Positions 3,574-53,360 of a stretch of 64,000 bases of DNA are shown here, one piece after another. Location of the stretch: positions 1 through 64,000 of IMG/VR virus record IMGVR_UViG_3300021599_001018. One strand, 5' to 3'. The notes beneath the pieces are model-generated. The model did not search any database. It saw nothing but the letters and a program-made list of their open reading frames with translations, and was not told the origin of the DNA. Every line of letters starts with the position of its first letter. Position 1 is the stretch's first letter. Origin of the DNA: a virus. A program made the position numbers and the translations under genes.

Positions 3574-4443
3574 TTATTTTACTTTACCTTTTAATTCTTT
3601 AAGTAATTCATAACTCATCATTAAAGCCGAAAGATGCTCTTCTTTGATTTTTTTAACAGACTTCATTTGTCTGATTTGTGCGATAGTTTCTGCTAATTTT
3701 ATTTTTGTAACTTTATCGGATATTTTTCCGCCAACCTCTTTAAGACCGGTTGTCAATTTTAAGATTTCACCAGAAACATATTCTTTTAATTTTCCGGTAT
3801 CATTGATATTGTTTATATATTCTCTTAAAAGTGATTTTTGTTCTGCAGTTAAGTTCTTATATTTGTTATTAAAACTCTCAATAAGTAGTTTGTATGATAT
3901 TGCTCTTAAGTCAGAATCTTGCTTTCTATATTCTTCTAATACTGCATCTTTGAATTTTTCCTCTTTATTTTGAATTGAGGAATTGATTATTGTTTCGGTA
4001 AGTGTGAAACGTGAATTAACAATATCTGTGGGTTCGTATTGTTCCTCCGATACCGTTACTTCAAAAATTTTATATATTGAAGCCAATAGTTTGTAATTGG
4101 AAACAGAAGATTTTATGAACTCATCTATATTGTAATTTTCTTTTATAGATTTGATTAGATTATATTTTTCTTTTGTAATTTTAGCCTCATCTAATCTTTT
4201 ACGGGCTTCGCATACTGTGTCTAAAAACTTTTCGGCTTTTGCTTCCGAATTGTATTTTTCATTTATTAAATACTGATATAATTTTAATTCTTTTGAGAGC
4301 TCTTTTTTAGAGTTAAAAAACTCCTTTAAGATTTTCTCTGCAACGGATTTATTTGAAGACATGATTTCGGATGTCACCTGTCTTACTAATAGTTCAAATA
4401 TAAACCCTGTATTTTTGAATTTAGAGTGCTTTATTTTTTTCAT
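3574..4443 (-). CDS. Conserved phage protein (IKHSKFKNTG family)
   Basis: ATG at 4443 (MKKIKHSK) preferred over TTG at 4461 because the promoter motif lies at 4464-4471. Confidence 0.75.
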   Translation of the reverse strand: MKKIKHSKFKNTGFIFELLVRQVTSEIMSSNKSVAEKILKEFFNSKKELSKELKLYQYLINEKYNSEAKAEKFLDTVCEARKRLDEAKITKEKYNLIKSIKENYNIDEFIKSSVSNYKLLASIYKIFEVTVSEEQYEPTDIVNSRFTLTETIINSSIQNKEEKFKDAVLEEYRKQDSDLRAISYKLLIESFNNKYKNLTAEQKSLLREYINNINDTGKLKEYVSGEILKLTTGLKEVGGKISDKVTKIKLAETIAQIRQMKSVKKIKEEHLSALMMSYELLKELKGKVK

Positions 4444-4555
4444 TAAACTGCAGTTTGTCAAATATAAATATATATTTCGCTAAGTTTACAATATCATAGT
4501 AATAAATATAGTTTTTTACTCCAATACAATGATTTTTTGTCAGATATTAGGGTAA

Positions 4556-4586
4556 TAAAATAAAAACCCAGCAATAATCTGGGTTT
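4556..4586 (-). terminator. Rho-independent terminator
   Basis: Stem AAACCCAG/CTGGGTTT with 7-nt loop and T-rich tail on the minus strand, after ORF 4609-4890. Confidence 0.75.
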
Positions 4587-4608
4587 ATTATTGAAATAAC
4601 TTACTATA

Positions 4609-4890
4609 TTATTCTACTGTTTTCTTTTTTGTTACTTTTTTTGTTGCTTTTGTTTTTGCAGTTTTCTTTTTTGTTGTTGCTTTCTTTTTAGCCTTTGGGG
4701 TTTCGGCAACAATATCCGGTGCTACTTCGGATTGATTTGCAGGAATTTCTAACACAGATATTTCTTCGGTAACAGTTATATCTGCCACACTTTGAATATC
4801 AACATTAGATTTTTCGGATTTTGGTTTCTTTGTTTTTAATACAACTACAACCGTAGTGATTGCGATTAAAATTAAAATTGCTAGTAACAT
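4609..4890 (-). CDS. Single-pass membrane protein with Lys/Thr-rich tail
   Basis: N-terminal TM helix; C-terminal KAKKKATTKKKTAKTKATKK. Confidence 0.7.
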   Translation of the reverse strand: MLLAILILIAITTVVVVLKTKKPKSEKSNVDIQSVADITVTEEISVLEIPANQSEVAPDIVAETPKAKKKATTKKKTAKTKATKKVTKKKTVE

Positions 4891-4952
4891 TTTTTAGTTT
4901 TTAGTTAAAAATAAAATTCAAATATAAATATAGGAAAATTACTTTTTATATA

Positions 4953-5363
4953 CTAATATAGATTTTGGTATACCATTCCCGATACTATCGCACCAATTAA
5001 ATATACCAATCGTTCTGTCCAAAATCCCCATTTAAGACCCGTTCTTTCTATAAAATCAATCAATGAATTTGTAGTTGTCGAAATGTAATCTATTTCTTTA
5101 TCTCTCAATAAATTTAGAATAACATCGTATAAAGTTGCTCTACTACTTGTATAAAAAATTGAATATGTAAGTATTTCAAAAAAGCCAGGAGTATAGTAAT
5201 AATCGGTGTATATTAAGGACAAACAAATACCAAATAAGATAGCCCCTATTGTAAAGGTGACTACCTTATTGATATTAGATACTTTTCCTAATGAAAGCGT
5301 TATTCTTATCCAATCTATAATTGCGGATATAATAACGGCTAGTATAGTATAAACGATAAACAT
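4953..5363 (-). CDS. Multi-pass membrane protein
   Basis: 136 aa with about 4 hydrophobic segments. Confidence 0.7.
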   Translation of the reverse strand: MFIVYTILAVIISAIIDWIRITLSLGKVSNINKVVTFTIGAILFGICLSLIYTDYYYTPGFFEILTYSIFYTSSRATLYDVILNLLRDKEIDYISTTTNSLIDFIERTGLKWGFWTERLVYLIGAIVSGMVYQNLY

Positions 5364-5364
5364 A

Positions 5365-5688
5365 TTATTTATCTAGTATAAACCATACATCATAATGGTC
5401 AGGCCAAAGTATAGCCCAAAAGAAAATACTACCAAGCAATACCCATACTAGTCCAAATTGGAACATTCCGGTTTTTAAGATAGGTACATTTTCATCGGAT
5501 TTTACCCATTCAGTAACACCCTTTGGTGCACCAGGTTTTTGTACTTGTACCATACTTCCCGATCTAGATGCTCTCCATCCGAAATAAAAGAAAATGAAAG
5601 CTGGTAGGTAACAGAATGCAAGTGCGATAAACATATCGTAACATTCCGCCAATGGAGCCAATGTCCATAGTAAATTAACTAATCCCAT
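5365..5688 (-). CDS. Membrane protein
   Basis: 107 aa, two TM segments flanking a polar loop. Confidence 0.65.
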   Translation of the reverse strand: MGLVNLLWTLAPLAECYDMFIALAFCYLPAFIFFYFGWRASRSGSMVQVQKPGAPKGVTEWVKSDENVPILKTGMFQFGLVWVLLGSIFFWAILWPDHYDVWFILDK

Positions 5689-5745
5689 AATTTTTGTTTT
5701 AGTAAAAAAATGTTGTTATAAAAATATATATTACCCAAATTCATT

Positions 5746-5988
5746 TTAGGCAAAGAAATATAATACTCCACCTAAAGCCGTAACTACCCAATCCCAAACA
5801 TCGAATTTTTCCTTTTGATAAAATTTGTCATAACACTCTTTTGCTAATCCTGCTAATGCGGCAGTTCCGAAACATATCCAACCTAAAACAGGTTGTTCAA
5901 ATAAGTTAAATCCAGCTGAGAGGATTGAGATAAGTAGTGATATTGCAAATCCTACTGTAAAGTGCATTGCTTTGTCTTGTGGTATCAT
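5746..5988 (-). CDS. Small membrane protein, VanZ/YfiM-like
   Basis: DKAMHF...GLAKECYD...FDVWDWVVTALGG pattern. Confidence 0.65.
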   Translation of the reverse strand: MIPQDKAMHFTVGFAISLLISILSAGFNLFEQPVLGWICFGTAALAGLAKECYDKFYQKEKFDVWDWVVTALGGVLYFFA

Positions 5989-5990
5989 AG

Positions 5991-7430
5991 CTATTGTTTT
6001 ATTATTTTGAATGATTTAATTCCATCTACATTTACTACATAAACGCCTGGCGGATATTTACTCAAATCTATTTTATTAACCGAGTGTAAACCGTTTATTG
6101 TTTTATATAATACTCCAGTTATAGTGAAAATTCTAACCTCTCTAAAATTATTACGATTTGGTAAATTAAGAAAATAAATACCCGTATTCATATCACCATA
6201 TATAGTGATAAGATTTATTTGTTCTCGTATGTTAGTTATCCATTCTGTCGGTTGAAAATCAAGAGGTGTCTGACCGTCAAAAACACCGGTTATATTGTAG
6301 CTCCCTAACATTCCGTAATTATAGATGTTAGGGTTCTCTGTGTTACTTACCACCAAATAATATATGCCAGGGTTTAGGATAGTGTCTATTAGTGCGTCTA
6401 CTTTTGTAAGAGAGTTATATTCTCTGATGAGCACATCATTACGATACAGTTGTAATTTAAGGTCTATGTTAGCACCCTGGTTAGGTGTGTTATCTTTAGG
6501 TTCAAAAGCATCAAAAAAGATTTTTGGGCCTGGACTATAAGGTTTTGCATCCGCTCTAAATTGCCCAGTTTTTGTATAATCAAATCGGTAATAGTCCACA
6601 TCATTAGTCGTATTGATTATTCCGTTTATTGCATAATTTTGGTCTAACATTAACCTTGATGTTGAGCGATCATTACCAACATCATCAGTTCTGTATTTTA
6701 CAAAGTTTGCGGTGCTCGCTATTATTGCTAAATCATCTTGAAAACGTGTGCAAGAAGTAGTTCTATCATTATGCCAAAGACTTAAATTTCTAAAATATGA
6801 AACACCCATGATAGGTGACCAACTTGTTTCACTTCTTGGCGTACCTCTTCCAGCATGATATTCTGTAACAAAAGCACAGCTATCTGTATCTACATTTCTA
6901 TATTGTGATTGATGAAAAAGACCTAATGTGTGTCCTACCTCATGCGTAACTGCTTCAGCAACATCTTTGTCATCACCTTTAAGCAGACTTGAAAAAACAA
7001 AACAGGGTATTGTGCCATAACCTAAACCGCCCCACCTCCAAGATTCAAGATAAGCTACTCCCCCCGCGTTGCCGTACCATTGCCAAGATTGCGTAATTAT
7101 GACCCTCGTTCTTCTTGTTATCGGGGTTGCTAAAAATACTGCGGAGTCAGTCGTTACATTGATTGTGAATGGGCGAAAGTCTTCAGCGACAAGATTAAAT
7201 ACTCTTGTCATTTGTGCAGTAGTCATGCTTGTGTCAGGCCCACAAACGAAAGGTTGATTATTTGTAAAAGCTGTCCAGTATGGATCTGTAACCGTTTGAC
7301 CGTCAAAATCGAGTAAGATGGTTGCTGTGTTAGGAGCAATGTAACTATTTAAGCCGTATGGTATCTGCGCCCTTATTCCTAAAAGAAAACATAAAAGCAT
7401 TATTAGTAAAAGTAGTAGTTTTCTTTTCAT
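5991..7430 (-). CDS. Secreted zinc metalloprotease (metzincin) with PPC-like domain and T9SS C-terminal sorting domain
   Basis: Sec signal ending A-Q; HEVGHTLGLFH; Met-turn PIMG; DVDYY PPC-like domain; C-terminus VRIFTITG...IDLSKYPPGVYVVNVDGIKSFKIIKQ. Confidence 0.85.
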   Translation of the reverse strand: MKRKLLLLLIMLLCFLLGIRAQIPYGLNSYIAPNTATILLDFDGQTVTDPYWTAFTNNQPFVCGPDTSMTTAQMTRVFNLVAEDFRPFTINVTTDSAVFLATPITRRTRVIITQSWQWYGNAGGVAYLESWRWGGLGYGTIPCFVFSSLLKGDDKDVAEAVTHEVGHTLGLFHQSQYRNVDTDSCAFVTEYHAGRGTPRSETSWSPIMGVSYFRNLSLWHNDRTTSCTRFQDDLAIIASTANFVKYRTDDVGNDRSTSRLMLDQNYAINGIINTTNDVDYYRFDYTKTGQFRADAKPYSPGPKIFFDAFEPKDNTPNQGANIDLKLQLYRNDVLIREYNSLTKVDALIDTILNPGIYYLVVSNTENPNIYNYGMLGSYNITGVFDGQTPLDFQPTEWITNIREQINLITIYGDMNTGIYFLNLPNRNNFREVRIFTITGVLYKTINGLHSVNKIDLSKYPPGVYVVNVDGIKSFKIIKQ

Positions 7431-7432
7431 AA

Positions 7433-7867
7433 TCAGTCAGGTATTAAGTCAGACATTTCTTTTTTATGCCATTGATTATTTTCTAATATAAGAACATCTT
7501 TATGATTTTTACTCATTAACACTGCTCTATAAATATGTTCACCTGTTTCTAATGTTACATCCGAATATATTAAGATTAGATTATCTATTTCAAGTGAATT
7601 AACCGTTATAGAAATCAATTTATTCGTCTTAATTATTCGTGTAACAATCCCTTCGAATTTTGTATAGTGTGTTATTCTTAAATTAACAATATCGTGTCTT
7701 TCAACATTGGATAGTTGTTCAACAAAAGTCGGTTGCAACTTTGATATAGCAGAATCTTTTATGAATAGATATGGTTTATCTTTATCCTTTTCTTTTCTTG
7801 TCTGAAACTCTTGTGCAAAAGAAAAAGATGATAAAAGAATAAATAAAATTGTTACTATTTTTTTCAT
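7433..7867 (-). CDS. Exported protein, unknown function
   Basis: Signal peptide MKKIVTILFILLSSFSFA-Q; beta-rich mature part. Confidence 0.7.
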   Translation of the reverse strand: MKKIVTILFILLSSFSFAQEFQTRKEKDKDKPYLFIKDSAISKLQPTFVEQLSNVERHDIVNLRITHYTKFEGIVTRIIKTNKLISITVNSLEIDNLILIYSDVTLETGEHIYRAVLMSKNHKDVLILENNQWHKKEMSDLIPD

Positions 7868-7878
7868 ATTTTTGGATT

Positions 7879-8853
7879 TTAATATCCTACTAATTGGCGT
7901 ATTACTAAGCTATCATTCTGAATGTTTGTACAACTAAAAGAAGTGGTCCCAATCCACCAATAACCTATTCTTGCATATGAATTACCCATGATAGGCGCTC
8001 TTGATGTTGATCCTGTGCCGAAACCAGAATTGTATTCAGTTAAAAATACACAAGCATCATTGTAAGATGATTGATGATAAAGGCCTAATGTATGTCCTAC
8101 TTCGTGTGAACTGGCTTCGAATATATTTTTCTGTTTATATCCAAGTGCTTTACTAAAAACAAAACATGGCACATCTAATCCCCATTTGATAGATTCCAAA
8201 TAAGCAACACCTCCTGCACAAGCAGTCGGTCCACAATAAAACTCAAAGTTTTCAGTTATTATCACTCGCTGTCTTCTTACAAGAGAAGCTGCATTGTAAA
8301 CACTTGAATCTGTTGTTACTGCTATTGATGCAAATTGACTAAAATCTTTTCTGACAGAATCTACGATGTTATTGATTTCAACCGTACTAAGGCCTGAAGG
8401 AGTTGCGTAAAAGGGCAACCCTCCGTTTTGAGAAGTCCAATACTGACTTGTAACATATTGGCCATCAAAATCTAAAAATATAACCCAATTCCCAAATGCT
8501 GGAGGTGGAGGAAAAGGCGTAGCGTCACATGCATCACCTATTCCATCTTTATCACTATCTAATTGATCTGGATTAAAAGTTACCGAGCAATTATCTTGTG
8601 AATCAATTATTCCGTCTTTATCAGTGTCTCTTGTTTTTCCGCCACTTCGCCTAAGAGCAACTTGTTGATCTTTAGGCGACATCCTGGCAACGGCATTAAA
8701 TTGGGTTATTCCAAAATCACAAGTTTCAGGAGACTTTTTCTTAAAGGAAATTTGTTTGGTTTCTTCTTTTGTTGGTTCTGTTTGTTTTTTACAGAAGGGT
8801 AATAATAAAATTACCACAGTTGCCCATAGTAAAGTTTTTGTTGTTTTATTCAT
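7879..8853 (-). CDS. Putative lipoprotein zinc metalloprotease with thrombospondin type-3 Ca-binding repeats
   Basis: Likely start MNKTTK (8853); hydrophobic stretch then C-KKQ; DTDKDGIIDSQDNC/DSDKDGIGDACD; HEVGHTLGLYH; PIMG. Paralogue of 5991-7430. Confidence 0.8.
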   Translation of the reverse strand: MNKTTKTLLWATVVILLLPFCKKQTEPTKEETKQISFKKKSPETCDFGITQFNAVARMSPKDQQVALRRSGGKTRDTDKDGIIDSQDNCSVTFNPDQLDSDKDGIGDACDATPFPPPPAFGNWVIFLDFDGQYVTSQYWTSQNGGLPFYATPSGLSTVEINNIVDSVRKDFSQFASIAVTTDSSVYNAASLVRRQRVIITENFEFYCGPTACAGGVAYLESIKWGLDVPCFVFSKALGYKQKNIFEASSHEVGHTLGLYHQSSYNDACVFLTEYNSGFGTGSTSRAPIMGNSYARIGYWWIGTTSFSCTNIQNDSLVIRQLVGY

Positions 8854-8864
8854 AATATATGGTT

Positions 8865-9284
8865 TTACACAATTTTGTGCCACCATAACCAACCTAAGAT
8901 TCTAACAAAAAAGTATCTTAGTTTATTATCGAATTTATTGTCATTAACGATATTTGCCCAAAAAAGCATTTCATCATCAACTTGCTTTCTTGTCATTGAA
9001 TGGTCTCTAATGACATAAAGTCTATCATGAACTAAATATGCGAATAACCCATCATTAAAGGGTCTAACGATTGACCATAACCATTTAGGTACTGTAGACA
9101 TATCATATGTAAAACCTTTCGGAATGTTTATGATTTTTCCGCTACTTAAAATAATGGTTAATGGTTTCTCTATTCTCCAGTATTTAGAGCTCTTGTCTGA
9201 ATAAATATAAGATTGTACGATTAAATCATCGGTAAGTAGTTGCTCTACTATATTATCCTTAGTTATATAGCCTGCCTTTGCCAT
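8865..9284 (-). CDS. DUF1353 family protein
   Basis: IPKGFTYDMSTVPKWLW...AYLVHDRLY...RKQVDDEM. Confidence 0.8.
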   Translation of the reverse strand: MAKAGYITKDNIVEQLLTDDLIVQSYIYSDKSSKYWRIEKPLTIILSSGKIINIPKGFTYDMSTVPKWLWSIVRPFNDGLFAYLVHDRLYVIRDHSMTRKQVDDEMLFWANIVNDNKFDNKLRYFFVRILGWLWWHKIV

Positions 9285-9705
9285 TTGCTATTTGATTGGT
9301 TACAACTTGTAGATTTTCCGTTCTTATCGATGTAACCTGCTCATTTAGACTAATCCATTCGGCATTATTGTTTCCAACACCTGTTGCTATTTGCGTTGTA
9401 AGTAAATCCATCATTTCAGTATTTATATTATTATAGCTACCTTCGGGCTTTTGTGCTAAAATACGAAATACATTTACAAAAGTTTCAACACCAACTGAAA
9501 CCGTTGCTAAATCATCATCATTCAGAGATTGGCATGTCGTTCTTATATCATCTATAACAGGCTGCGATACATTAACAACAAGTCCAATAGATTCTGCTCC
9601 GGCCAAATAATTTTTTACAGCGGAATATCTAGCTATTTCACTTAATAATATATCAGCAATTAAATAAAAATGTTTTGCTTTAAGTTGTATTTCTATCATA
9701 TACAT
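9259..9705 (-). CDS. Hypothetical protein
   Basis: 148-aa ORF directly behind promoter motif at 9714-9721. Confidence 0.6.
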   Translation of the reverse strand: MYMIEIQLKAKHFYLIADILLSEIARYSAVKNYLAGAESIGLVVNVSQPVIDDIRTTCQSLNDDDLATVSVGVETFVNVFRILAQKPEGSYNNINTEMMDLLTTQIATGVGNNNAEWISLNEQVTSIRTENLQVVTNQIANGKGRLYN

Positions 9706-9723
9706 TATTTAATATAAATATAA

Positions 9724-10857
9724 TTATTTTTTATAGTTAAGCATATTTGTATAAACCTCATAATATCTATCTGCTATAATATCCCAATTATATTGTTTAC
9801 AAGTATCATAACCGTTTTCTTTTAATTGAAATTTCTGATTATTTGTAAGTTGTGTAAATTCATAAATTCCATTAGTAATCTCTTGCGGTGTAGAACCACA
9901 ATATAAACTATTTGAATCGGTTAAGAAATCCGATAACCCATCTACTCTAGATGATAGTAGTATCGTCTTTGATGCCAACGCTTCTAAAGCAACAATACCA
10001 AATGGCTCGTGCTTACTTGGCATTATCACAGCATCGGCTGAGTGTATTATATCAATTTTATTTTGGTTGTATACAGGTCCGTAATAATGTATTCCAGATT
10101 TATTTTGTAAAGCTTTTTCTAGTGCATTTATCGCTTCCACATCTCCTCCATTATAAGATCCTACAAAAATTAAATCAACGTCAACTGGTAATTCGGAATC
10201 CAATAATTCTACTATTGATTTCATAATGGCAAATCTACCAATATAAATAATTTTATATTTTCTATTTCCAGGTAATTTAATTTTATTTTGTTGTTTCCAA
10301 TTATTCAAATCAATACCATTTGGAATAATATCAGTCTTATCTATAAATTGTGGAAAATACTTTGCATACCCATTAGATACATTTATGATTTTATCTGCAT
10401 TTTGTAACCCAAACCACTCCATCTCAACGTGTGCTTTATGTAACCACATACCATCTATTGTATTAAAATCGGCGCACATTTTAATACCAACATTAGCCAT
10501 GGCATTTGCGGATAAATTCATTGAAACCAATAGGGGAACATTATGATACTTTGCCAAATACACTCCCGCAAAATATGTAGACCAATCGTAAGAATGAACA
10601 AAATCTGGTTTTGGAAATTTAAGTGCTTCTGCTAAATATACAGTATGCCCTAATAAAGTATTTATTGAACCATGTTGTATTTGTGGAATTGGATGCGATA
10701 CTCCAATATAATTTTTATCTTTGATTGTAGTATCTGGATAGCCGACTATATTAAATTCAACTCTATCCTTCAATCTTTCATAAATGTTTTTGAATTGTAC
10801 ACCAAGTCCACCTGTCGGTTTAGATATACTATCAGGAAATATACATAACACTTTCAT
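9724..10857 (-). CDS. Glycosyltransferase family 4 (GT-B)
   Basis: GGLG near N-terminus, HSYDW, IPNGID, GRF..K, PSKHEPFGIVALEA. Confidence 0.92.
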   Translation of the reverse strand: MKVLCIFPDSISKPTGGLGVQFKNIYERLKDRVEFNIVGYPDTTIKDKNYIGVSHPIPQIQHGSINTLLGHTVYLAEALKFPKPDFVHSYDWSTYFAGVYLAKYHNVPLLVSMNLSANAMANVGIKMCADFNTIDGMWLHKAHVEMEWFGLQNADKIINVSNGYAKYFPQFIDKTDIIPNGIDLNNWKQQNKIKLPGNRKYKIIYIGRFAIMKSIVELLDSELPVDVDLIFVGSYNGGDVEAINALEKALQNKSGIHYYGPVYNQNKIDIIHSADAVIMPSKHEPFGIVALEALASKTILLSSRVDGLSDFLTDSNSLYCGSTPQEITNGIYEFTQLTNNQKFQLKENGYDTCKQYNWDIIADRYYEVYTNMLNYKK

Positions 10858-10899
10858 AACTTACAATTTACAATTTTTTTTTAATAAAAACAAATATAA

Positions 10900-11322
10900 T
10901 TATGTAAGACCACACGCACCATCAGACATAATTATATCAATAACATCGCTTGAATTTATTGTTATAGCCGTAAAATTCATCGTTCCATCTGATGTTCTTG
11001 ATATACATTGCTCCAAAATTGAATTTTTGTACAGCGATACACTAATTTCTTCAAAAAGTGTTGTAGAAACATTTACAGAAATAGAATTAGTTGTTCCAGA
11101 GTGATTACCTGTTAAAAAATCGCCACCGGTTAATGGAAGAGAACCTTGAATGGCTGTAAATGTAATTCCTGATATTGTATTTATAGTACCCCAAATTGAA
11201 TTATTATCTACAATTAGGTTTACTCTTTCCCATACTAAATCACTTCCTAAGTAAATTTTATTAACGGTATTTGATCCCAATCTAAAATCTCCTACACTTA
11301 TTGAGCCTAATGATATTGCCAT
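10900..11322 (-). CDS. Small fibre-tip/receptor-binding-associated protein
   Basis: N-terminal NKIYLGSDLVW motif, a type that follows fibre genes ending in xEYxxxxPDxNTLYxI. Confidence 0.6.
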   Translation of the reverse strand: MAISLGSISVGDFRLGSNTVNKIYLGSDLVWERVNLIVDNNSIWGTINTISGITFTAIQGSLPLTGGDFLTGNHSGTTNSISVNVSTTLFEEISVSLYKNSILEQCISRTSDGTMNFTAITINSSDVIDIIMSDGACGLT

Positions 11323-11324
11323 AA

Positions 11325-14300
11325 TTAAATTATTACATATAAAGTATTACTATCAGGTGTTATACCACTATATTCTGCCGATGATAAAGATACTATTTTC
11401 AATATAGGTGAAGTTCCAGTAAAAGTATCTCCCAGGTTTGTTATGAAAGAACCCGATTGTGAGCCGGATCTAATAAGTGCAGATCCTGACACCGTCAATG
11501 AACTCGAAACCGTCAATGAACCCGAAACCTCTACTCTAGATCCAGATGCGTATACTAAATTAGACCGGTTTGAATTACTTGTACCATTACCAATGATAAA
11601 TGCATAATTTGCTGAGCTTGTTATATTATATGCACCCTGTACATGTTGGTAGCTACCCGCTGCTATTGTAAAAAATCCTTCAGCATGGGATGCCTCTGCG
11701 GATGCGGTTGTTGTATGTCCTTCGGCGTGCGCCCATCTTGCAGATGCCAAAGTTCTATATCCTTCGCTATGAGATCCTGTATTAGAGCTAAATGTTTCTT
11801 GTCCTTCGGAGTGGGAAAACTCACCATTTGCTGTAGTAGAAGATCCTTCGGCGTGTGAACCTTGTCCAAAAGCAATTGTACTACCACCTTCGGCGTGTGA
11901 GTATATTCCTCTTGCTATAGAAAAAATGCCCTCTGCATGCGAATAAGAACCGGTTGTCTGTGTTTGAAAACCTTCGGCGTGTGAATAAGATCCTGATGCC
12001 CATGTTTCTTGACCTTCAGCGTGTGAGTAGCCTCCTATTGCTTGAGTGTTAAACCCTTCTGTGTGTGAAGCTACTCCTATTGCTTGTGTAATCCAACCTT
12101 CTGTGTGTGAATATGCTCCTATTGCTATTGTTGAAATTCCTTCTGCATGCGAGCCTTCTCCTATTGCTTGTGTTGTTCGTCCTTCTGCGTGTGAGTCACT
12201 TCCCATCGCTTTTGTTCGGTCTCCTTCTGCGTGTGAATATGAACCCGATGCTAATGTTTGGTCTCCTTCTGCATGTGAAAAATTGCCTGCAGCCCAAGTG
12301 AGATTACCTTCCGAATGCTGACCGGCATTTCTAAATGAGTTTGCGCTAAATAGAGAATATATAAAACCATACCCACTTAGGCCGGGTGCACCAATAGTTG
12401 TAGTAGATCCATTGGTTGTTACACTGGTTACAACCCCACGTTGCCAATTAGTAGTTGGACCACGATCTGATCCGGCGGTATAAATAAATCCAGAGCCAAC
12501 AGGAAAAATACCTACGAAATTGCCAGTTATTGTTACCGAATTTGATGTATATCCCGATATAGCGTAAGATTCTGGATTAGCTGCCCACGTTCCAAATCCT
12601 TCAGCGTGAGCATAACCAATACTAGCTACTAAGTTGTAATAACCTTCGGCGTGCGAATATCCATTTTCACTGCCAGAGCTATATATTATGTTTTGCCTAC
12701 CTTCTGCATGCGAATATGCAGCAATTACTTCATTATTCCAGCCTTCCGCATGAGAAAAACTGCCAGATGCTATTGAACCACTACCTTCGGTGTGTGAAGC
12801 AAGTCCTATTGCAACGGTATACACTCCCTCAGCGTGCGAATATGAACCCGTTGTTCTTGTACCAGCACCCTCTGCGTGTGAACCTTCTCCTGATGCTTCT
12901 GTGAAGCCACCTTCTGAATGCGACCAGTCTCCTGCTGCTAGCGTATCTACACCTTCGGAATGAGCTGCTCTTCCAACAGCATTCCATAACGGACCAGCTG
13001 CTTCGGTTTGTTCACCTTCGGCATGTGAATACGCACCCGATGCCCATGTTTCTCTACCTTCAGCGTGCGAACCTTCTCCGGATGCAAGTGTTATTCCACC
13101 CTCTGCATGCGACCCAAGTCCACTCGCGACAACATAGGCTGATTCAATCCCTACACCCTCTGCATGTGCGTAGTGTCCGCTTGCTAATGTATAAACTCCT
13201 TCAGCGTGTGAATAGTTTCCTGATGCGTTTGTGGATGCACCCTGTGCATGTGAGTACAATCCATTGGCACCTACATCTAGTCCTTGCTGAAAACTCTGAC
13301 TAGTATGTATAAATCTAAATGAACCAGTTCCAGCAAATGTACTATTCCTATTGAATTGTATTTGAGTATCTGAACCACCAACTGTACTTCCACCGCCTCC
13401 GGCCGATGATGTATAACTTACTAACCCCGTAGTTGTATTATAAGTTAATACGAAACCGGTATTGTTTACAGCTACGCCACTTACAAACAATGAACCGGAA
13501 ACAGTAGTAGATCCAGTTACTATTAATGATCCTGTAATTTGTGTATTACTATTTATAGATACGATTGTACCCGTATCACTTATACTCGAACTTGTAATAT
13601 GTTCGTTGCCTGTTCCTTTTAATAATCTATTTTGAGGAATATATATTTCACTACCAAGATTACCATATGTTTCGGGCCCCATAAGCAAAACAGATGAAGT
13701 TACAGTAACACCATCCCCTCTATGAACAAATAGCCATTCATCTTGCACAGAATCATATAACAATGATCCAGAACCCGGAGATGAACCTGAATCTATAACT
13801 GCCAATCCGCCATATCTAATTGTTGGTGAAGATACATTTGTCGTAATCAGATTTGTTCCTATGTTTAATACCGATGAACTTATATATTGTATTGAAGAAC
13901 TACCTAACACTGTAAGATTACCACTTATAATCAATGAACCACTTATTGATTGATTTGCCGTAAATATATTACTTCCGGTTGTAGCAAAAGATGCGGTTTG
14001 ATTATTTCTAACAAATGAGCTAGTCTGTGAATTTATTACAAAACTACTTGTCTGCGAATTAGTTACGAAAGAGCTAGTCTGCGAATTTAATACATAAGGC
14101 GAAAGCATTGAAGCCGTTTGTGCATTAGCTACAAAGCTTGAAGTTTGTGAATTAGTTACGAAAGAGCTTGTTTGTGTATTTCTAACAAAGCTTGAAGTTT
14201 GAGAATTGGTTACAAATTGAGTCGTATCTACTGAACCAGCTCCAACAGCAGATGATGCTGTATAAGTTATTCTGCCAGTAGTTGTATCATATGTTAATAC

Positions 14301-17300
14301 ATGCCCCGATCCGGCCGATAATGCTGCTCCACTTACAAACACCGTTCCGCTTATATTTAAGGCGCCATTTATTGTATGAGAATCAGTTGTTGTATTTCCT
14401 ATTGTTACGGCGTTTTGATTAACAATAAATTCTCCACCAAAAACGGAAAGTGATGATGTTATCGTTACAGATCCTGATACTATCATAGATCCGCTTCTTA
14501 TTGTCAATCCATTCTCATCAAATCTTGCTCTTTCAATTCCCTTAAAATAAAATCTTGTTGCAAAATTATTAGCTCCACCTAAATCAGATCTTGGTTGTAT
14601 AATCAGATCACCAGCTAAGGTTGCGGGATTACCATTTGTTCCGGTATTACTTCCAGCTACTACTATTAGAGATTGTGTAAATGATGAAGATATATTAGTA
14701 TTGGATGCTAAAACATCTCCTATTCTTAAACCAAGACCATCGGTACTACCTCCAAAATGTGCACCACCTGCTACCCATAATTTACTATTTTGTATAGAAC
14801 CTACAGTACCTGCCCCAATACCAATACCTGATTGCGTTTGGTATAGAATACTTGAACCTAATGTAGTTGTTGTATTCCATATTGGTATAAAGTTTGTAGT
14901 TCCTACTAATTGCGAATTTGTAGTAAAGCTTGAAGTTTGTGAGTTTAATACAAATGAGCTCGTTTGAGTATTAGTTACGAAACTACTAGTCTGTGAGCTT
15001 ATTACAAATGATGAAGTCTGTGTATTTGTTACAAAGCTTGAAGTTTGAGTATTTCTTACAAAACTACTAGTCTGCGAATTAGTTACAAACTGTGTAGTAT
15101 CTACTGAACCAGCTCCAACAGCGGATGATGCTGTATAAGTTATCTGACCCGTTGTAGTATTGTAAGTTAATACATGGCCTGTTCCTGATGAAAGCGCTGC
15201 TCCGCTAACAAAAACAGTTCCACTAACAAATTGGTCGCCACGGAAAGTATTAGAACCAGTCGTAGCAAATGATGCAGTTTGAGTACTTCTAACAAAACTA
15301 CTTGTCTGTGAATTAAGTACGAATGAGCTGGTTTGTGAATTTGTCACAAAACTGCTAGTCTGCGAATTTAATACAAAACTACTTGTCTGCGAATTAGTTA
15401 CGAATGAGCTAGTTTGTGAGTTTGTTACAAATTGAGTCGTATCTACTGAACCCGCTCCAACAGCAGATGATGCTGTATAAGTTATCTGACCTGTCGTTGT
15501 ATTATATGTAAGAACGTGGCCGGTTCCAGATGAAAGCGCTGCTCCACTAACAAATACAGTTCCACTAATAAATTGACTTCCTCTAAAAGTATTAGAACCG
15601 GTCGTTGCAAATGATCCTGTTTCAGAATCCAATACATATGGAGAAAGCATTGAAGCGGTTTGTGCATTTAGCACAAAACTACTTGTTTGTGAGTTTACTA
15701 CGAAAGAGCTAGTCTGTGAGTTTGTTACAAAGCTTGAAGTTTGTGTATTTCTTACAAAGCTACTTGTCTGATTATTCAGTACATATGGAGAAAGCATTGA
15801 ACTTGTCTGTGAGTTCAATACAAATTGAGTCGTATCTACAGATCCAGCTCCGACAGCTGCTGAAGCTGTATAAGTTATTTGTCCTGTTGTAGTATTGTAA
15901 GTTAATACATGTCCCGATCCGGCCGATAATGCTGCCCCACTTACAAAGATTGTACCGCTAATAAACTGGTCACCACGAAATGTATTGGAGCCTGTAGTAG
16001 CAAATGAGCCAGTTTGAGTACTTCTAACAAAGCTACTCGTCTGTGAATTGGTTACAAATGAGCTAGTCTGCGAATTAGTTACAAATGAGCTTGTTTGTGA
16101 GTTTAGTACATACGGAGATAGCATTGAAGCAGTTTGTGCGTTTAGTACAAAGCTACTAGTCTGCGAATTGGTTACAAATTGTGAAACATCCACACTACCA
16201 GCTCCAACGGCCGAGGATGCGGTATAAGTTATCTGACCTGTTGTTGTGTTATAAGTTAATACATTACCGTTGCCCGAAGATGCTGCTGCTCCACTAATAA
16301 ATACCGTACCGCTAATAAACTGGTCACCACGAAATGTATTGGAGCCTGTCGTAGCAAATGAACCGGTTTGTGTACTCCTAATAAAACTGCTAGTCTGTGA
16401 ATTAGTTACGAAAGAGCTAGTCTGCGAATTTACTACAAAGCTTGAAGTTTGTGAATTAGTTACGAAAGAGCTAGTCTGCGAATTTCTTACAAAACTACTT
16501 GTCTGTGAGTTTGTTACAAATTGTGAAACATCTACAGATCCAGCTCCGACAGCTGATGAAGCTGTGTATGTGATTTGACCTGTAGATGTATTATACGTCA
16601 ATACATGGCCAGTTCCAGATGATAATGCTGCTCCACTTACAAAGACCGTTCCACTTATATTTAGTGCCCCATTTATTGTATGTATATCGGTTAATGTGTT
16701 TCCTATTGTTACGGCGTTTTGATTAACAATAAATTCTCCACCAAAAACTGATAGGGAAGAAGTTATATTAACCGTTCCGCTTATTATTTGATTACCTCTA
16801 AAAGTATTAGAGCCAGTTGTAGCGAATGATGCTGTTTGTGAGTTTAATGTGAAGCTACTAGTCTGACTATTAGTTACAAAGCTTGAAGTTTGTGCATTTA
16901 CTACAAATGAGCTAGTCTGCGTATTAGTTACGAAAGAACTTGTTTGTGAGTTTAATACAAACGAGCTAGTCTGCGTATTAGTTACGAAAGAGCTCGTTTG
17001 AGTGTTTCTAACAAAGCTACTTGTCTGTGAGTTAGTTACGAATTGACTGGTATCAACAGATCCTCCGCCTATAGCAGAAGACGCTGTGTATGTTATTTGC
17101 CCTGTTGTACTGTTGTAAGTCAATACATTACCGTTGCCCGATGATAGTGCTGCTCCACTAATAAACACCGTTCCACTAATAAACTGGTCACCACGGAAAG
17201 TATTACTACCAGTTGTGGAAAAAGATGAAGTTTGGGTATTTCTAACAAAACTACTTGTTTGTGAGTTTACAACAAAAGAGCTAGTCTGTGAGTTTGTTAC

Positions 17301-17600
17301 AAAGCTTGAAGTTTGCGAATTAGTTACAAAACTACTAGTCTGATTATTTAATATAAATGACCCTGTCTGCGTATTAGTTACGAAAGAGCTTGTTTGTGTA
17401 TTTCTAACAAAACTACTTGTCTGCGAATTGGTTACAAATTGAGAAACATCTACACTGCCAGCTCCTACTGCCGCAGACGATGTATAACCCACCTTTCCAC
17501 TAACGGAATCATATGTAAGTACATTTCCATCGCCAGCTGATTGCTGTGCTCCTATTCTTAAGTCTGCGATACTACCTGAGTCTGTGTAAAATATTGGCAT
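11325..17600 (-). CDS. Long fibre/adhesin protein: nonad-repeat stalk plus YadA-head-like SHAEG repeats
   Basis: 2091 aa; many (T/L/R/V)NSQTSSFV repeats, nine VLTY neck modules, 14-aa SHAEG repeats near the C-terminus. Confidence 0.85.
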   Translation of the reverse strand: MPIFYTDSGSIADLRIGAQQSAGDGNVLTYDSVSGKVGYTSSAAVGAGSVDVSQFVTNSQTSSFVRNTQTSSFVTNTQTGSFILNNQTSSFVTNSQTSSFVTNSQTSSFVVNSQTSSFVRNTQTSSFSTTGSNTFRGDQFISGTVFISGAALSSGNGNVLTYNSTTGQITYTASSAIGGGSVDTSQFVTNSQTSSFVRNTQTSSFVTNTQTSSFVLNSQTSSFVTNTQTSSFVVNAQTSSFVTNSQTSSFTLNSQTASFATTGSNTFRGNQIISGTVNITSSLSVFGGEFIVNQNAVTIGNTLTDIHTINGALNISGTVFVSGAALSSGTGHVLTYNTSTGQITYTASSAVGAGSVDVSQFVTNSQTSSFVRNSQTSSFVTNSQTSSFVVNSQTSSFVTNSQTSSFIRSTQTGSFATTGSNTFRGDQFISGTVFISGAAASSGNGNVLTYNTTTGQITYTASSAVGAGSVDVSQFVTNSQTSSFVLNAQTASMLSPYVLNSQTSSFVTNSQTSSFVTNSQTSSFVRSTQTGSFATTGSNTFRGDQFISGTIFVSGAALSAGSGHVLTYNTTTGQITYTASAAVGAGSVDTTQFVLNSQTSSMLSPYVLNNQTSSFVRNTQTSSFVTNSQTSSFVVNSQTSSFVLNAQTASMLSPYVLDSETGSFATTGSNTFRGSQFISGTVFVSGAALSSGTGHVLTYNTTTGQITYTASSAVGAGSVDTTQFVTNSQTSSFVTNSQTSSFVLNSQTSSFVTNSQTSSFVLNSQTSSFVRSTQTASFATTGSNTFRGDQFVSGTVFVSGAALSSGTGHVLTYNTTTGQITYTASSAVGAGSVDTTQFVTNSQTSSFVRNTQTSSFVTNTQTSSFVISSQTSSFVTNTQTSSFVLNSQTSSFTTNSQLVGTTNFIPIWNTTTTLGSSILYQTQSGIGIGAGTVGSIQNSKLWVAGGAHFGGSTDGLGLRIGDVLASNTNISSSFTQSLIVVAGSNTGTNGNPATLAGDLIIQPRSDLGGANNFATRFYFKGIERARFDENGLTIRSGSMIVSGSVTITSSLSVFGGEFIVNQNAVTIGNTTTDSHTINGALNISGTVFVSGAALSAGSGHVLTYDTTTGRITYTASSAVGAGSVDTTQFVTNSQTSSFVRNTQTSSFVTNSQTSSFVANAQTASMLSPYVLNSQTSSFVTNSQTSSFVINSQTSSFVRNNQTASFATTGSNIFTANQSISGSLIISGNLTVLGSSSIQYISSSVLNIGTNLITTNVSSPTIRYGGLAVIDSGSSPGSGSLLYDSVQDEWLFVHRGDGVTVTSSVLLMGPETYGNLGSEIYIPQNRLLKGTGNEHITSSSISDTGTIVSINSNTQITGSLIVTGSTTVSGSLFVSGVAVNNTGFVLTYNTTTGLVSYTSSAGGGGSTVGGSDTQIQFNRNSTFAGTGSFRFIHTSQSFQQGLDVGANGLYSHAQGASTNASGNYSHAEGVYTLASGHYAHAEGVGIESAYVVASGLGSHAEGGITLASGEGSHAEGRETWASGAYSHAEGEQTEAAGPLWNAVGRAAHSEGVDTLAAGDWSHSEGGFTEASGEGSHAEGAGTRTTGSYSHAEGVYTVAIGLASHTEGSGSIASGSFSHAEGWNNEVIAAYSHAEGRQNIIYSSGSENGYSHAEGYYNLVASIGYAHAEGFGTWAANPESYAISGYTSNSVTITGNFVGIFPVGSGFIYTAGSDRGPTTNWQRGVVTSVTTNGSTTTIGAPGLSGYGFIYSLFSANSFRNAGQHSEGNLTWAAGNFSHAEGDQTLASGSYSHAEGDRTKAMGSDSHAEGRTTQAIGEGSHAEGISTIAIGAYSHTEGWITQAIGVASHTEGFNTQAIGGYSHAEGQETWASGSYSHAEGFQTQTTGSYSHAEGIFSIARGIYSHAEGGSTIAFGQGSHAEGSSTTANGEFSHSEGQETFSSNTGSHSEGYRTLASARWAHAEGHTTTASAEASHAEGFFTIAAGSYQHVQGAYNITSSANYAFIIGNGTSNSNRSNLVYASGSRVEVSGSLTVSSSLTVSGSALIRSGSQSGSFITNLGDTFTGTSPILKIVSLSSAEYSGITPDSNTLYVII
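11640..13260 (-). repeat. ~42-nt period coding repeat (xSHAEGxxTxAxG beta-roll)
   Basis: Recurrent ccttc(g/t/a)gc(g/a)tg(t/c)ga on the + strand; boundaries approximate. Confidence 0.85.
13980..17460 (-). repeat. 27-nt period coding repeat arrays (NSQTSSFV) alternating with neck modules
   Basis: Directly visible in DNA and protein; boundaries approximate. Confidence 0.9.
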
Positions 17601-45994: not shown

Positions 45995-47236
45995 TTAAAA
46001 ATCCAATTTAACTTTAATTGCTATTTCTTTATCAAATGTTTTTTCTACCGGCGTACTTACTTTAGCTACTGCTAATAATTCATTTGCATCATCGTAAAGC
46101 CCAACGGATGTAACATATACATGTGGGTCTTTTTCAAATGCACCAACAACGAATTGTCCTGCAGATCCGGTCACAAATGCTGGATTATTTGAGAAATTAA
46201 ATTCTCTATTGTTAGCTCTTACAAAATAATGTGAAGTAGAAACATTTTCGGTTCTACGAGCTTGGAAATCGGCACCTGTGGATATACAATCAATAAGTTT
46301 TCTAGATCCAGATAGTGAAGATGAATTGTTAAAATATGTGCCCGCAGCTGTGGTACTTACCGATGCACCTAACCCAGTATCTACAGTAACTGCTAATGCT
46401 TGTGGGTTTAATAAAATAACTCCCATATCAGGATAAAATAATCCAAATCCCTGGCCATTGGATGCTGTGATTGATTGTATTGTGGATGTTAGTGAAGTAC
46501 CTATATTTAACGAACCACTAACTATATTGTAAACTCTACCAGATGTTGTTACATTTTCATCAGTACCACCACTATCATCTATAAGCGTTATTCTACCAAC
46601 ATTACCATCTAAAATTATAGATATATTTCCTGGATCTAATCTTTCTTTATATCTTGCTCTGTTTATATTGATTGCATAAAATGCTGAAAGGTTGTGTCCC
46701 GCCGATGTAGAACCACTATAAACACTAAAAAATTGGTCGGTTGGATTTAGTAATATATTTTTGAATTGCCCATATATCGCTCTAGTAGATAATAAACTTG
46801 TATCATCAACTGCTAATGATGGTGCACCAAAACCACGCACATCGCCATATGCAACCGAAAATTGTACTTCCGCTGCTGTATTGGTAGCTGGGTCTTTATC
46901 ATATGCATCTATATAATATCTACCTGCTATTGAAGCAGTTTGTGAATTTTTCATATATAAAGTTCCCAAAGAACCAGTATCACCACTCCATATACCAGAT
47001 GTAACAATTTGAGTTCTGTTTGTAACTTTATCGTTAGAACCAAACTTTTTGTAAATACCATTGGTGATTGCCGTTGCTCTTGATTCTACTTGCTCACCTT
47101 CTGGTAAGAATTGATTAAGAATACGAGTAATCTCCATAGTATCTAATGGAGTTCCGGCTGTATTTGCTGCACCTGCCAAATAGGTGGATAGATTGCTTGC
47201 TAAAAGGGCTCCTCTATTATCTCTAATAATTGCCAT
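45995..47236 (-). CDS. Baseplate/tail structural protein
   Basis: YVTSVGLYD...LLAVAK...KLDF C-terminus. Confidence 0.65.
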   Translation of the reverse strand: MAIIRDNRGALLASNLSTYLAGAANTAGTPLDTMEITRILNQFLPEGEQVESRATAITNGIYKKFGSNDKVTNRTQIVTSGIWSGDTGSLGTLYMKNSQTASIAGRYYIDAYDKDPATNTAAEVQFSVAYGDVRGFGAPSLAVDDTSLLSTRAIYGQFKNILLNPTDQFFSVYSGSTSAGHNLSAFYAININRARYKERLDPGNISIILDGNVGRITLIDDSGGTDENVTTSGRVYNIVSGSLNIGTSLTSTIQSITASNGQGFGLFYPDMGVILLNPQALAVTVDTGLGASVSTTAAGTYFNNSSSLSGSRKLIDCISTGADFQARRTENVSTSHYFVRANNREFNFSNNPAFVTGSAGQFVVGAFEKDPHVYVTSVGLYDDANELLAVAKVSTPVEKTFDKEIAIKVKLDF

Positions 47237-47250
47237 TTGATTGTTTTATT

Positions 47251-47883
47251 TTATCTTGTGTAATTTATATATGTTACAGTTACGGGGATTGTTTGAGACC
47301 CTCCCGTTTCATTACCATAAACAGTAATAGTTGTTCTAATTGTCGATGTTAATGATGGGTTAGGAATAAATTTGAATGACAATCCTTTAGCGATTGCGGC
47401 AGTTGCAGATACATCATCTCCTATAAATACAGGAATAGTTCCAATATCAGCACTAACACCTTCACCAATAATATCTCCTGCGTTTTTATTTGCTAATATC
47501 ACCGTATATCCTAAGCTTCTGTTTCCTGCAGGAGAAGTAGTTGGCGATAATGCAACTTCACCACTTCTTTGATTAACAGATATATTTGGAATACCAAATT
47601 CCACAACAGGAATACGAGTCGTATTTTTTGGTAGAGTTACTAATTTATACTTCATTACTTGAGTTTCATCGGGAGATGCTTCAAGAACAGGCATATTTTT
47701 AATTGCCACATCATAATACGCACTACCTAGTGGGTGTGCTGGCTCATAAAGAGAATAATCAATTTCATCATCGGCTAAAGCAAATTGAGTAATGTTTAAT
47801 CCCTGCCCTGCGGCTAGTTTTTCTCTACCTTTTTTTGTTAGAATTGCATCTACAGTTAATGTAGTATTATCTAAATATCCCAT
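47251..47883 (-). CDS. Baseplate/tail structural protein
   Basis: AILTKKGREKLA...ITQFALADDEIDY, resembling tail-collar/wedge N-terminal domains. Confidence 0.65.
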   Translation of the reverse strand: MGYLDNTTLTVDAILTKKGREKLAAGQGLNITQFALADDEIDYSLYEPAHPLGSAYYDVAIKNMPVLEASPDETQVMKYKLVTLPKNTTRIPVVEFGIPNISVNQRSGEVALSPTTSPAGNRSLGYTVILANKNAGDIIGEGVSADIGTIPVFIGDDVSATAAIAKGLSFKFIPNPSLTSTIRTTITVYGNETGGSQTIPVTVTYINYTR

Positions 47884-47926
47884 ATAGCTTAATTGTTTTA
47901 ATAATAAATATAGTTTTTATAAAATT

Positions 47927-53317: not shown

Positions 53318-53360
53318 TAAATTCTTTTATATAAATATATTACCAAATAAATTAGTTTTA

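Follow-up and report, generated by a model that had tools for sequence, protein, structure and literature searches.

In Acinetobacter, the secreted metzincin CpaA is encoded next to its chaperone CpaB, which is required for the stability and secretion of CpaA and whose C-terminal tail blocks the CpaA catalytic site in a zymogen-like manner (PMC7542363). In the KLIKK-peptidase/potempin system of Tannerella forsythia, small (98-132 aa) beta-barrel inhibitors are encoded immediately upstream of peptidases exported by the T9SS (type IX secretion system), with which they form a stable complex (PMC9890683). Phage-encoded T9SS cargo is, as a concept, already published and not new here: T9SS sorting-domain proteins were described in crAss-like cluster 2 viral contigs in 2019 (PMC6949934) and as cargo of the 'Cryophage' in 2020 (PMC7468147), and UniProt viral entries already bear the T9SS type A sorting-domain name. 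The present analysis concerns a gene cassette at positions 5991-8853, on the minus strand, of the virus record IMGVR_UViG_3300021599_001018 from IMG/VR. The record is linear, 72,874 bases long and has a CheckV completeness of 39%; its bases 1-64000 were analysed and are called the window. The cassette encodes two metzincin-type metalloproteases, named P3 and P1, on either side of a small protein, MID. Taken as a whole, the explanation that we favour, with somewhat better than even confidence, is that MID and P1 are a unit of host origin which, together with the viral protease P3, forms part of a late-type, envelope-directed gene cluster.

The three genes lie exactly where the original prediction had placed them, and they are tightly packed with the membrane-protein gene that follows (gaps of 11, 2 and 2 nt, all on the minus strand):

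7879-8853, minus strand: P3, 324 aa from the ATG at 8853, a lipoprotein-type metzincin; an alternative TTG start at 8892 would give 337 aa
7433-7867, minus strand: MID, 144 aa, a small, beta-rich, putatively secreted protein with the C-terminal tail ...DLIPD
5991-7430, minus strand: P1, 479 aa, a metzincin followed by a pre-peptidase C-terminal (PPC) domain and a putative T9SS type A C-terminal sorting domain (CTD)
5746-5988, minus strand: TM80, a small membrane protein that begins 2 nt past the P1 stop

P1 is laid out as a Sec signal (residues 1-21), a metzincin domain (residues 30-245, nt 6696-7343) with its zinc motif at nt 6912-6944, the PPC domain (residues 246-395, nt 6246-6695) and the CTD (residues 409-479, nt 5994-6206). 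The sequence HEVGHTLGLxH and a PIMG Met-turn are found in both P1 and P3. The zinc motif of P1 (HEXXHXXGXXH) occupies residues 163-173, and H163, E164, H167, H173 and the Met-turn residue M208 (SPIMG) are invariant in a 44-row family alignment; the AF2 model has low confidence at residues 195-217. The Gln after the third His of the zinc motif is unusual. Read by eye, the signal ends as MKRKLLLLLIMLLCFLLGIRA/Q (the slash marks the end), and Q22 is nearly invariant. These motifs sustain the claim that the cassette encodes exported metzincins, which for the export part relies on signal peptides recognised by eye. Neither P1 nor P3 could be placed in a curated protease subfamily (M10, M12, M43, M57 and others), as every Pfam and NCBIfam match fell below its cut-off, the best being Peptidase_M57 at 19.4 bits against 21. 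The AF2 model of P1 (pLDDT 81, pTM 0.70) has a PPC-like middle domain, the best Foldseek matches of which in the PDB are collagenase PPC and collagen-binding domains. A full-length Foldseek search of the PDB returned PPC/collagen-binding-like matches only and left the catalytic domain unclassified, and a PDB sequence search with P1 gave no match at E <= 1.

The last 62 residues of P1 match the NCBIfam model TIGR04183 at 25.6 bits, above the cut-off of 23 (E 8.6e-6). P1 is the sole match to this model in its own record, a related record (G001) likewise contains a single one, and none of 14 control genomes reached the cut-off. The phage relatives of P1 include short forms (448-479 aa), which are without a domain of about 90 aa found between PPC and CTD in bacterial proteins; TIGR04183 matched 11 of 11 short-form relatives (E <= 0.01), and the short forms share a distinctive CTD ending, KSFKI(I/V)KQ. 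Their mean pairwise identity is 64.5% in the CTD, 58.1% in the catalytic domain and 50.8% in PPC, and since the CTD is the best conserved of these domains, we argue that the tail is functional. The P1 domain is strictly C-terminal and has a KxxKQ end as in the bacterial homologues, and the C-terminus of the family profile matches solved T9SS CTDs (7pzj, 6.2e-5; 8glk_D; mirolase, 8qb1; RgpB, 5hfs). A T9SS type A CTD is a seven-strand immunoglobulin (Ig)-like beta-sandwich, and AF2 predicts seven strands at P1 residues 409-478 (block pLDDT 82-92). As for the system itself, three of three Chitinophagaceae genomes with the homologous operon (see below) encode SprA above cut-off. These matches support the view, put forward in the original prediction, that P1 carries a T9SS type A CTD.

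Among 8000 candidates scored, 2689 were relatives of P1 at E <= 0.001. Where a relative has a name, it is a 'T9SS type A sorting domain' protein or a zinc metalloprotease from Chitinophagaceae, Lacibacter and other metagenome-assembled genomes of Bacteroidota; the named bacterial relatives are 530-545 aa long and 45-54% identical to P1. Of 600 pattern stretches in bacterial genomes, 487 code for P1 relatives, and 80 loci were kept, almost all of them titled Chitinophagaceae or Chitinophagales and the remainder Bacteroidota. When a hidden Markov model (HMM) of the MID family was run against the six-frame open reading frames (ORFs) of the 80 loci, 78 had a MID-family ORF on the protease strand and directly upstream of the protease gene (median gap 70 nt); the other two loci begin at a contig end, so that the upstream DNA is missing. 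The neighbours of the bacterial pair are genes of housekeeping type (MarR, CoA-binding, RNase H-like and DEAD helicase genes). On this synteny we conclude that MID and P1 represent a two-gene host operon of Chitinophagaceae that was captured by phages.

Several viral contigs contain the captured genes in different settings. L003, from a viral record of 127,871 bases, has P3, MID and P1 in the same order as the window, with identities of 83% (P3), about 82% (MID) and 79% (P1). In L009 and L010 the order is M15 endolysin, a 199-aa ORF, MID, a 544-aa protease and TM96, without P3; L011 has MID and a 537-aa protease, and in L012 TM96 comes after a short form of 448 aa, the DNA upstream of which is not visible. 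In a quick maximum-likelihood tree, which has SH-aLRT support only and an unresolved backbone, the phage copies split into separate clades among the bacterial ones, with support of 99% for the group of the window and L003, 95% for L011 with P0026, and 80% for the P0005 group beside a Lacibacter protein. Such nesting among Bacteroidota homologues, which had been proposed as a check on the origin of the cassette, suggests more than one capture of MID and P1 by phages and does not prove it. Downstream of the cassette, L003 has at least six ORFs (8023-13435) that by eye resemble glycosyltransferases or methyltransferases, with no counterpart at that place in the window. The 199-aa ORF between M15 endolysin and MID (L009 3825-4424, L010 928-1527) has a GIY-type motif (..SGIYKITSP..) and may be a homing endonuclease; two further GIY-type ORFs (218 and 236 aa) lie downstream in L009/L010.

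MID belongs to no Pfam, NCBIfam or PHROG family. It fell into 17 clusters at 50% identity among 1.84 billion representatives, and the Atlas puts it among unnamed Bacteroidota clusters. For its AF2 model (pLDDT 91.7), the top six PDB fold matches by Foldseek are all CpaB chains of 6o38 (E 7.5e-4 to 3.1e-3, TM 0.46-0.60). A complex was predicted for P1 residues 22-250 plus zinc with MID residues 20-144, each with a separate alignment; it reached an ipSAE of 0.87, against 0.43 for the best control, with at least 98% of contacts shared between runs and a partner pLDDT of at least 91. In calibration, 58 of 80 solved complexes attained this ipSAE mark, as did 2 of 110 mismatched pairs. The prediction places MID residues 140-144 in contact with P1 residues 121-128 (an edge strand), E164, H167 and 172-173. 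Of the close MID relatives, 19 of 19 end in Asp, and 59 of the 78 bacterial members end in Asp or Glu; a Cys at the signal end (lipobox) is present in none of 19 aligned members (..SFAQ or ..FSQ). That the middle protein could be a trans-acting prodomain or inhibitor had been suggested; the conserved adjacency, the CpaB-like fold and the predicted complex with the tail in the active site all agree with this suggestion, and the complex prediction for the 144-aa protein passes with the P1 catalytic domain as partner. On these models we therefore think it likely that MID serves P1 as a dedicated chaperone or latency factor in the periplasm.

The history of P3 is a different one. Its signal and Cys21 (8791-8853) are followed by TSP3 repeats (about 8521-8640), a PPPP linker and the catalytic domain (about 7882-8487) with the zinc motif at 8074-8106, which corresponds to residues 250-260. 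In a 24-row alignment H250, E251, H254, H260 and the Met-turn residue M289 (APIMG) are invariant. The lipoprotein-like Cys and the TSP3 repeats noted at the outset both hold up: Cys21 is invariant in 24 of 24 family members, as is a Lys at +2, and P3 scores 27.3 bits on Pfam TSP_3 (gathering score 25) over two stretches, in which the D-x-D-x-D-G and Cys columns are invariant. P1 and P3 are 49% identical across P1 residues 37-242 (about 206 residues; E 1.2e-48). The two proteases had been described as paralogues; they are not a simple paralogue pair, as P1 with MID derives from a host operon and P3 belongs to another clade. The 120 best relatives of P3 (45-92% identity) are almost all unnamed metagenome proteins, and full-length P3 is present in 36 viral contigs of IMG/VR, in records of up to 286,785 bases. 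In 201 genomes of the Chitinophagaceae family, the P3 query matched 67, nearly always with the catalytic part alone and within P1-type ORFs; the N-terminal part was covered at two places only, one of them in an ordinary chromosomal context. This distribution indicates that P3 belongs to a separate, mainly viral clade with a history distinct from that of P1.

The rare bacterial relatives of P3 are encoded at L166 (G198:C31) 7783-9006, minus strand, and L165 (G129:C2) 8039-8968, plus strand. A lipoprotein metzincin of 309 aa, with prfA-like and gcvH-like genes nearby, is one of them; the other is a 407-aa lipoprotein with metzincin and PPC, an architecture between those of P3 and P1. Between the lipid anchor and the TSP3 repeats of P3, residues 40-60 (about 8674-8736) form a conserved segment, PExCDFxxGxYNxVARMSP, with an invariant Cys45-Asp46; this segment may be an intramolecular latency motif of the cysteine-switch or aspartate-switch type.

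The pair of MID and P1 is like CpaA-CpaB (PDB 6O38) in that a secreted metzincin has an adjacent gene for a dedicated chaperone, as MID probably is, and in that a C-terminal tail occupies the catalytic site, which for MID is a prediction; the adjacency is seen in the 78 bacterial loci and in the phage loci L003, L009, L010 and L011. CpaA, however, exits through the type II secretion system and not the T9SS, and CpaB, but not MID, has an N-terminal transmembrane anchor and is wrapped by CpaA with four extra domains. With the KLIKK/potempin system the pair has in common the Bacteroidota, a T9SS peptidase (putative for P1; metallopeptidases are among the KLIKK enzymes) and a small partner gene immediately upstream. 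Potempins, however, are outer-membrane lipoproteins that insert loops into the cleft, whereas MID has no lipobox Cys and is predicted to place its tail there, and no potempin structure was among the top 50 PDB fold matches of MID. The pair also differs from the potempins in occurring in Chitinophagaceae and phages, and it is known here from sequence and models. The Cryophage and the crAss-like contigs resemble the present case in being Bacteroidota phages with T9SS type A sorting domains and a presumed hijack of the host system; the cargos described in the text of those papers are an endoglucanase, a GH39 protein, a PA14 protein and BACON proteins, with no metzincin, cognate chaperone or inhibitor gene, or paralogous lipoprotein protease among them.

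We found in print no captured protease-plus-chaperone operon in a phage, no MID family and no phage lipoprotein metzincin coupled to TM80/96, the supplementary gene lists of the cited papers lying outside this search. Literature searches for a dedicated chaperone of T9SS metalloproteases, or for T9SS type A sorting together with phage, returned nothing relevant. Phage T9SS hijacking has so far been purely bioinformatic, and P1 would be a compact, easily assayed cargo with which to demonstrate it. MID, an unnamed family, is likely to be the dedicated chaperone or latency factor of a T9SS metzincin common in Chitinophagaceae; if so, it would provide a second example of an inhibitor-coupled T9SS protease after the potempins, working by a CpaB-like tail-in-cleft mode. 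Lipoprotein metzincins that are widespread in uncultured large freshwater phages, close to envelope and lysis genes and coupled to a membrane protein hint at a proteolytic step of egress or surface remodelling that is not known from model phages.

In 50,697 GenBank phage records the only relative of P1 or P3 is gp42 of Synechococcus phage S-CRM01, which across P1 residues 35-382 is 28.8% identical; among BFVD entries, the best fold match of P1 (F5B3R2, E 1.7e-24) was taken to be the same protein from its length of 636 aa. Like P1, gp42 has a metzincin and PPC core (pre-peptidase C-terminal domain protein), and unlike P1 it is encoded between gp21 and gp22 in the head module and is without CTD, MID and TSP3. 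The metzincin and PPC core without a signal peptide visible by eye occurs in contigs of high-GC cyanophage type (L016 2980-4107, L017 5914-7077) and in S-CRM01 (46147-48057, or L167 3797-5707), among tail-fibre and head genes; this cyanophage form of the enzyme may be virion-associated rather than exported.

Among the proteins encoded in the record are a prohead protease of T4 gp21 type (Pfam S77, E 1.8e-31) and a baseplate wedge protein (phrog_219). Together with the 2091-aa fibre listed below, these identify it as a fragment of a large T4-like myovirus, and the best explanation of its source is an uncultured freshwater T4-like phage of Bacteroidota (Chitinophagaceae). A megablast of 5000-10000 against the 50,697 phage records gave zero matches, and P1, MID, P3, TM107, TM136 and K93 all lack a PHROG family. 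Around the cassette the following features were recorded, the first three from the ORF list:

11325-17600, minus strand: fibre gene, 2091 aa
between the fibre and glycosyltransferase genes, minus strand: 140-aa ORF
9724-10857, minus strand: glycosyltransferase gene, between the fibre genes and the cassette
9713-9720, minus strand: promoter-like motif TATTTATA, extended form ATATTTATAT, 15 nt before the start of orf148
9259-9705, minus strand: orf148, of no known family, which would open the putative transcription unit and is conserved together with DUF1353 in related viral contigs
8865-9284, minus strand: DUF1353 protein (Pfam PF07087, E 2.2e-12; phrog_1158, E 8.3e-19, labelled tail assembly chaperone in PHROG)
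5365-5688, minus strand: TM107, a small membrane protein, linked to P3 in other viral contigs
4953-5363, minus strand: TM136, a small membrane protein, linked to P3 in other viral contigs
4609-4890, minus strand: 93-aa ORF (K93), of no known family, with its own ATATTTATAT motif at 4930 and a terminator after it at 4586-4564
4564-4586, minus strand: terminator-like hairpin with an 8-bp stem and a T-run, the first strong one downstream of the cassette

The motif TATTTATA has 16 matches on the minus strand, and 10 of these, among them the one at 9720-9713, fall 14-51 nt ahead of a start codon in short intergenic gaps; on both strands together there are 27 matches, compared with 17.3 +/- 4.5 in shuffles. 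Intergenic ATATTTATAT sites on the minus strand are at 53337, 45937, 44682, 28399/28393, 25986, 21017, 9720, 4930 and 4470, and precede structural genes, orf148 (9720) and the 93-aa ORF (4930). Scans for sigma-70 promoters (45 versus 40.1 +/- 6.9) and for TATATTAAATA (12 versus 15.2) gave no enrichment. The T4 sequence TATAAATA can be read at 9713-9720 on the plus strand; the coding strand there reads TATTTATA, which resembles the T4 sequence and is not identical to it. We conclude that ATATTTATAT is probably the (late) promoter element of this phage. No strong terminator was found within the cassette, and the position of the motif before orf148 supports a single transcription unit running from 9720 through P3, MID, P1 and the membrane-protein genes, which, judged by the structural genes with the same motif, is probably late. 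Of the earlier statement that the cassette lies downstream of a late-promoter motif (at 9714) with no terminator between, the recurrence of the motif and the open path to the cassette were confirmed; 'late' continues to be an inference.

The mechanism that we propose runs as follows. The Sec route would take P1 and MID across the inner membrane. MID would then, in the periplasm, bind the P1 catalytic domain, with its acidic tail (..LIPD) lying along the edge strand and over the zinc site, and would keep P1 folded and latent, as CpaB does for CpaA and the potempins for KLIKK peptidases. The host T9SS would then recognise the type A CTD and carry P1 to the cell surface or the medium, where P1 would become active once MID had been left behind. 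P3, which has calcium-binding TSP3 repeats and no MID-type partner, would be lipid-anchored in the outer membrane. Both protease types appear to be translationally coupled to the small membrane protein TM80/96, and expression of the cassette is probably late, driven by the ATATTTATAT motif at 9720. The most likely targets of the enzymes would be host proteins of the envelope or surface, cleaved as lysis approaches and while it proceeds, which would aid egress and destroy receptors on cells and debris. We lean, by a little, towards a late-infection activity on proteins of the host envelope or surface; within this, destruction of receptors or other surface proteins is a tentative proposal that falls short of even odds, and a role in egress is doubtful.

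Several points weigh against this explanation. The host of the phage is assigned solely through homologues, and the timing relies on a motif common to structural genes. The signal-peptide ends (..GIRA/Q, ..SFA/Q and ..LLPF/C) were read by eye, and the P3 lipobox, LPF/C, has an atypical Phe at -1, a position at which 12 of the 24 family members have Ser, Ala or Gly (by eye). The P1 CTD scores 23.0 bits on Pfam PF18962, under the gathering score of 27. The fold match of MID to CpaB is moderate, one match only being at E <= 0.001, and at the sequence level MID has chance-level matches only to CpaB or any PDB chain. A control in which MID was kept and P1 replaced still reached an ipSAE of 0.43, and the complex run used its own alignments and a zinc ion, unlike the calibration set-up. 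Nineteen of the 78 bacterial MID members end otherwise than in Asp or Glu, seven of them in D-Y. Queries with the L003 M15 protein, PF00959 or PF01510 found no endolysin in the 72.9-kb record. In our judgement the target is the least certain step of all.

The neighbourhood of the metzincins in related phages bears on a different purpose. The 36 viral loci, some of them near-duplicates from different samples, have these neighbours within 5 kb of P3: DUF1353 in 17, TM80/96 in 16, TM107 and/or TM136 in 10 and M15 endolysin in 6; MID and P1 were beside P3 in one of the 36. In 19 of 40 loci, 5 of P1 type and 14 of P3 type, the start of TM80/96 falls between -4 and +11 nt from the stop of a metzincin gene, and since TM80/96 stands beside the stop of both protease types, the conserved unit is 'metzincin then TM80/96'. 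This cluster tends also to hold an endolysin: in L003 an M15_4 endolysin (Pfam E 6.4e-15) directly precedes P3, and in L009/L010 the P1-type protease lies between endolysin and TM96 with no P3. Because the record of the window is 39% complete, the lack of an endolysin match there says nothing about the whole phage, and the lysis-cluster context therefore comes from relatives only. It was originally proposed that the phage puts the proteases on or outside the infected cell to remove receptors or competing fibres, release progeny from biofilm or scavenge peptides. This interpretation is supported in part; the gene neighbourhood points at least as much to a lysis or envelope gene cluster as to those purposes.

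This leads to the strongest of the rival explanations, in which the metzincin and TM80/96 would provide an outer-envelope lysis step after the endolysin, replacing spanins by cutting outer membrane-peptidoglycan tethers or surface layers, with P1 and P3 as alternative fillers of one slot. The linkages just described speak for it, as does the character of P3, a putative outer-membrane-type lipoprotein like the o-spanins, with TSP3 repeats that resemble those of OmpA-like tethers in NCBIfam matches. Set against this, we know of no metzincin acting in phage lysis, and a surface-exported T9SS protease would be on the wrong side of the outer membrane for periplasmic tethers. Tail-fibre accessory genes are linked equally strongly, and an endolysin was not found in the record of the window. 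A holin role for TM80/96 was considered and set aside: by eye, the protein does not have the charged C-terminus that holins typically show, and its leads in the Atlas were VanZ/DUF2279-like only. We rate the lysis step as unlikely, though worth keeping in view. A bolder version, that large Bacteroidota phages have, in the metzincin with its coupled TM80/96, a hitherto unrecognised proteolytic device for egress, which would act at the outer envelope and replace spanins or work alongside them, with the slot filled by P3 or by captured MID and P1 and the chaperone keeping the enzyme silent until the right moment, seems to us a slimmer prospect.

It can also be asked whether MID and P1 have any envelope role, or are simply a host nutrient-scavenging operon carried as a moron, which would supply peptides or bring no benefit. 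The bacterial operon does sit in conserved housekeeping synteny and occurs in 67 of the 201 sampled family genomes, as would be expected of an ordinary secreted degradative enzyme, and the glycoside hydrolases among the Cryophage T9SS cargo are read there as added enzymatic capability (PMC7468147). A passive passenger fits poorly, however, with a pair that is present in at least three phage clades, has its GC content ameliorated to phage values (0.26-0.36 in the cassette and 0.335 in the window; bacterial operon median 0.406) and occupies the metzincin/TM96 slot by a precise insertion. In the phage short forms the domain of about 90 aa is gone and yet a highly conserved CTD remains, and the late-type promoter context would leave little time for nutritional gain. 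We consider this explanation improbable.

The preferred explanation, with host capture and envelope action, further presumes that the CTD works as an export signal. If it were a mere Ig-like fold and no working T9SS signal, P1 would be periplasmic or released by lysis, and MID would be its permanent partner. Ig-like domains are common on phage proteins, and the short-form CTD aligns poorly with bacterial CTDs (BLAST coverage 77-81% for long forms). The HMM comparison that had been proposed for this region gave a divided answer, the TIGR04183 score lying above its cut-off and the PF18962 score below its own. The TIGR04183 match recurs, on the other hand, in every short form and in no control genome, the domain is strictly C-terminal with the KxxKQ end of its bacterial homologues and under strong constraint, and NCBI names those homologues T9SS type A sorting proteins. 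A non-signal CTD is thus, in our view, a poor prospect.

That the cassette is host DNA mis-joined to phage DNA during assembly is hardly credible: the nearest named relatives of P1 and MID do sit in bacterial genomes, but the independent, diverged viral contig L003 (79-92% protein identity) keeps the genes, their order and the flanking phage genes, the GC content of the cassette is phage-like and unlike that of the bacterial operons, the gene spacing of 2-11 nt runs on into flanking phage genes, and near-identical words recur in 19 DNA runs, each with at least 86% of the sampled words of 4400-10000, of which 8, from 7 studies, are not possible sources. A single RNA run, with a share of 0.06, counts as no evidence.

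Three further features of the window were noted. The 93-aa ORF is hydrophobic over an N-terminal segment, acidic in the middle and very rich in Lys at its tail (..KAKKKATTKKKTAKTKATKKVTKKKTVE), and a homologue of it lies near P3 in L112. In the fibre protein, SQTSSFV(x)N repeats are numerous, and repeats of SYSHAEG type form a long run. At 285-818 on the minus strand, adjoining the head genes, is the gene for a Ferritin-like protein (Pfam Ferritin, E 2.2e-18).

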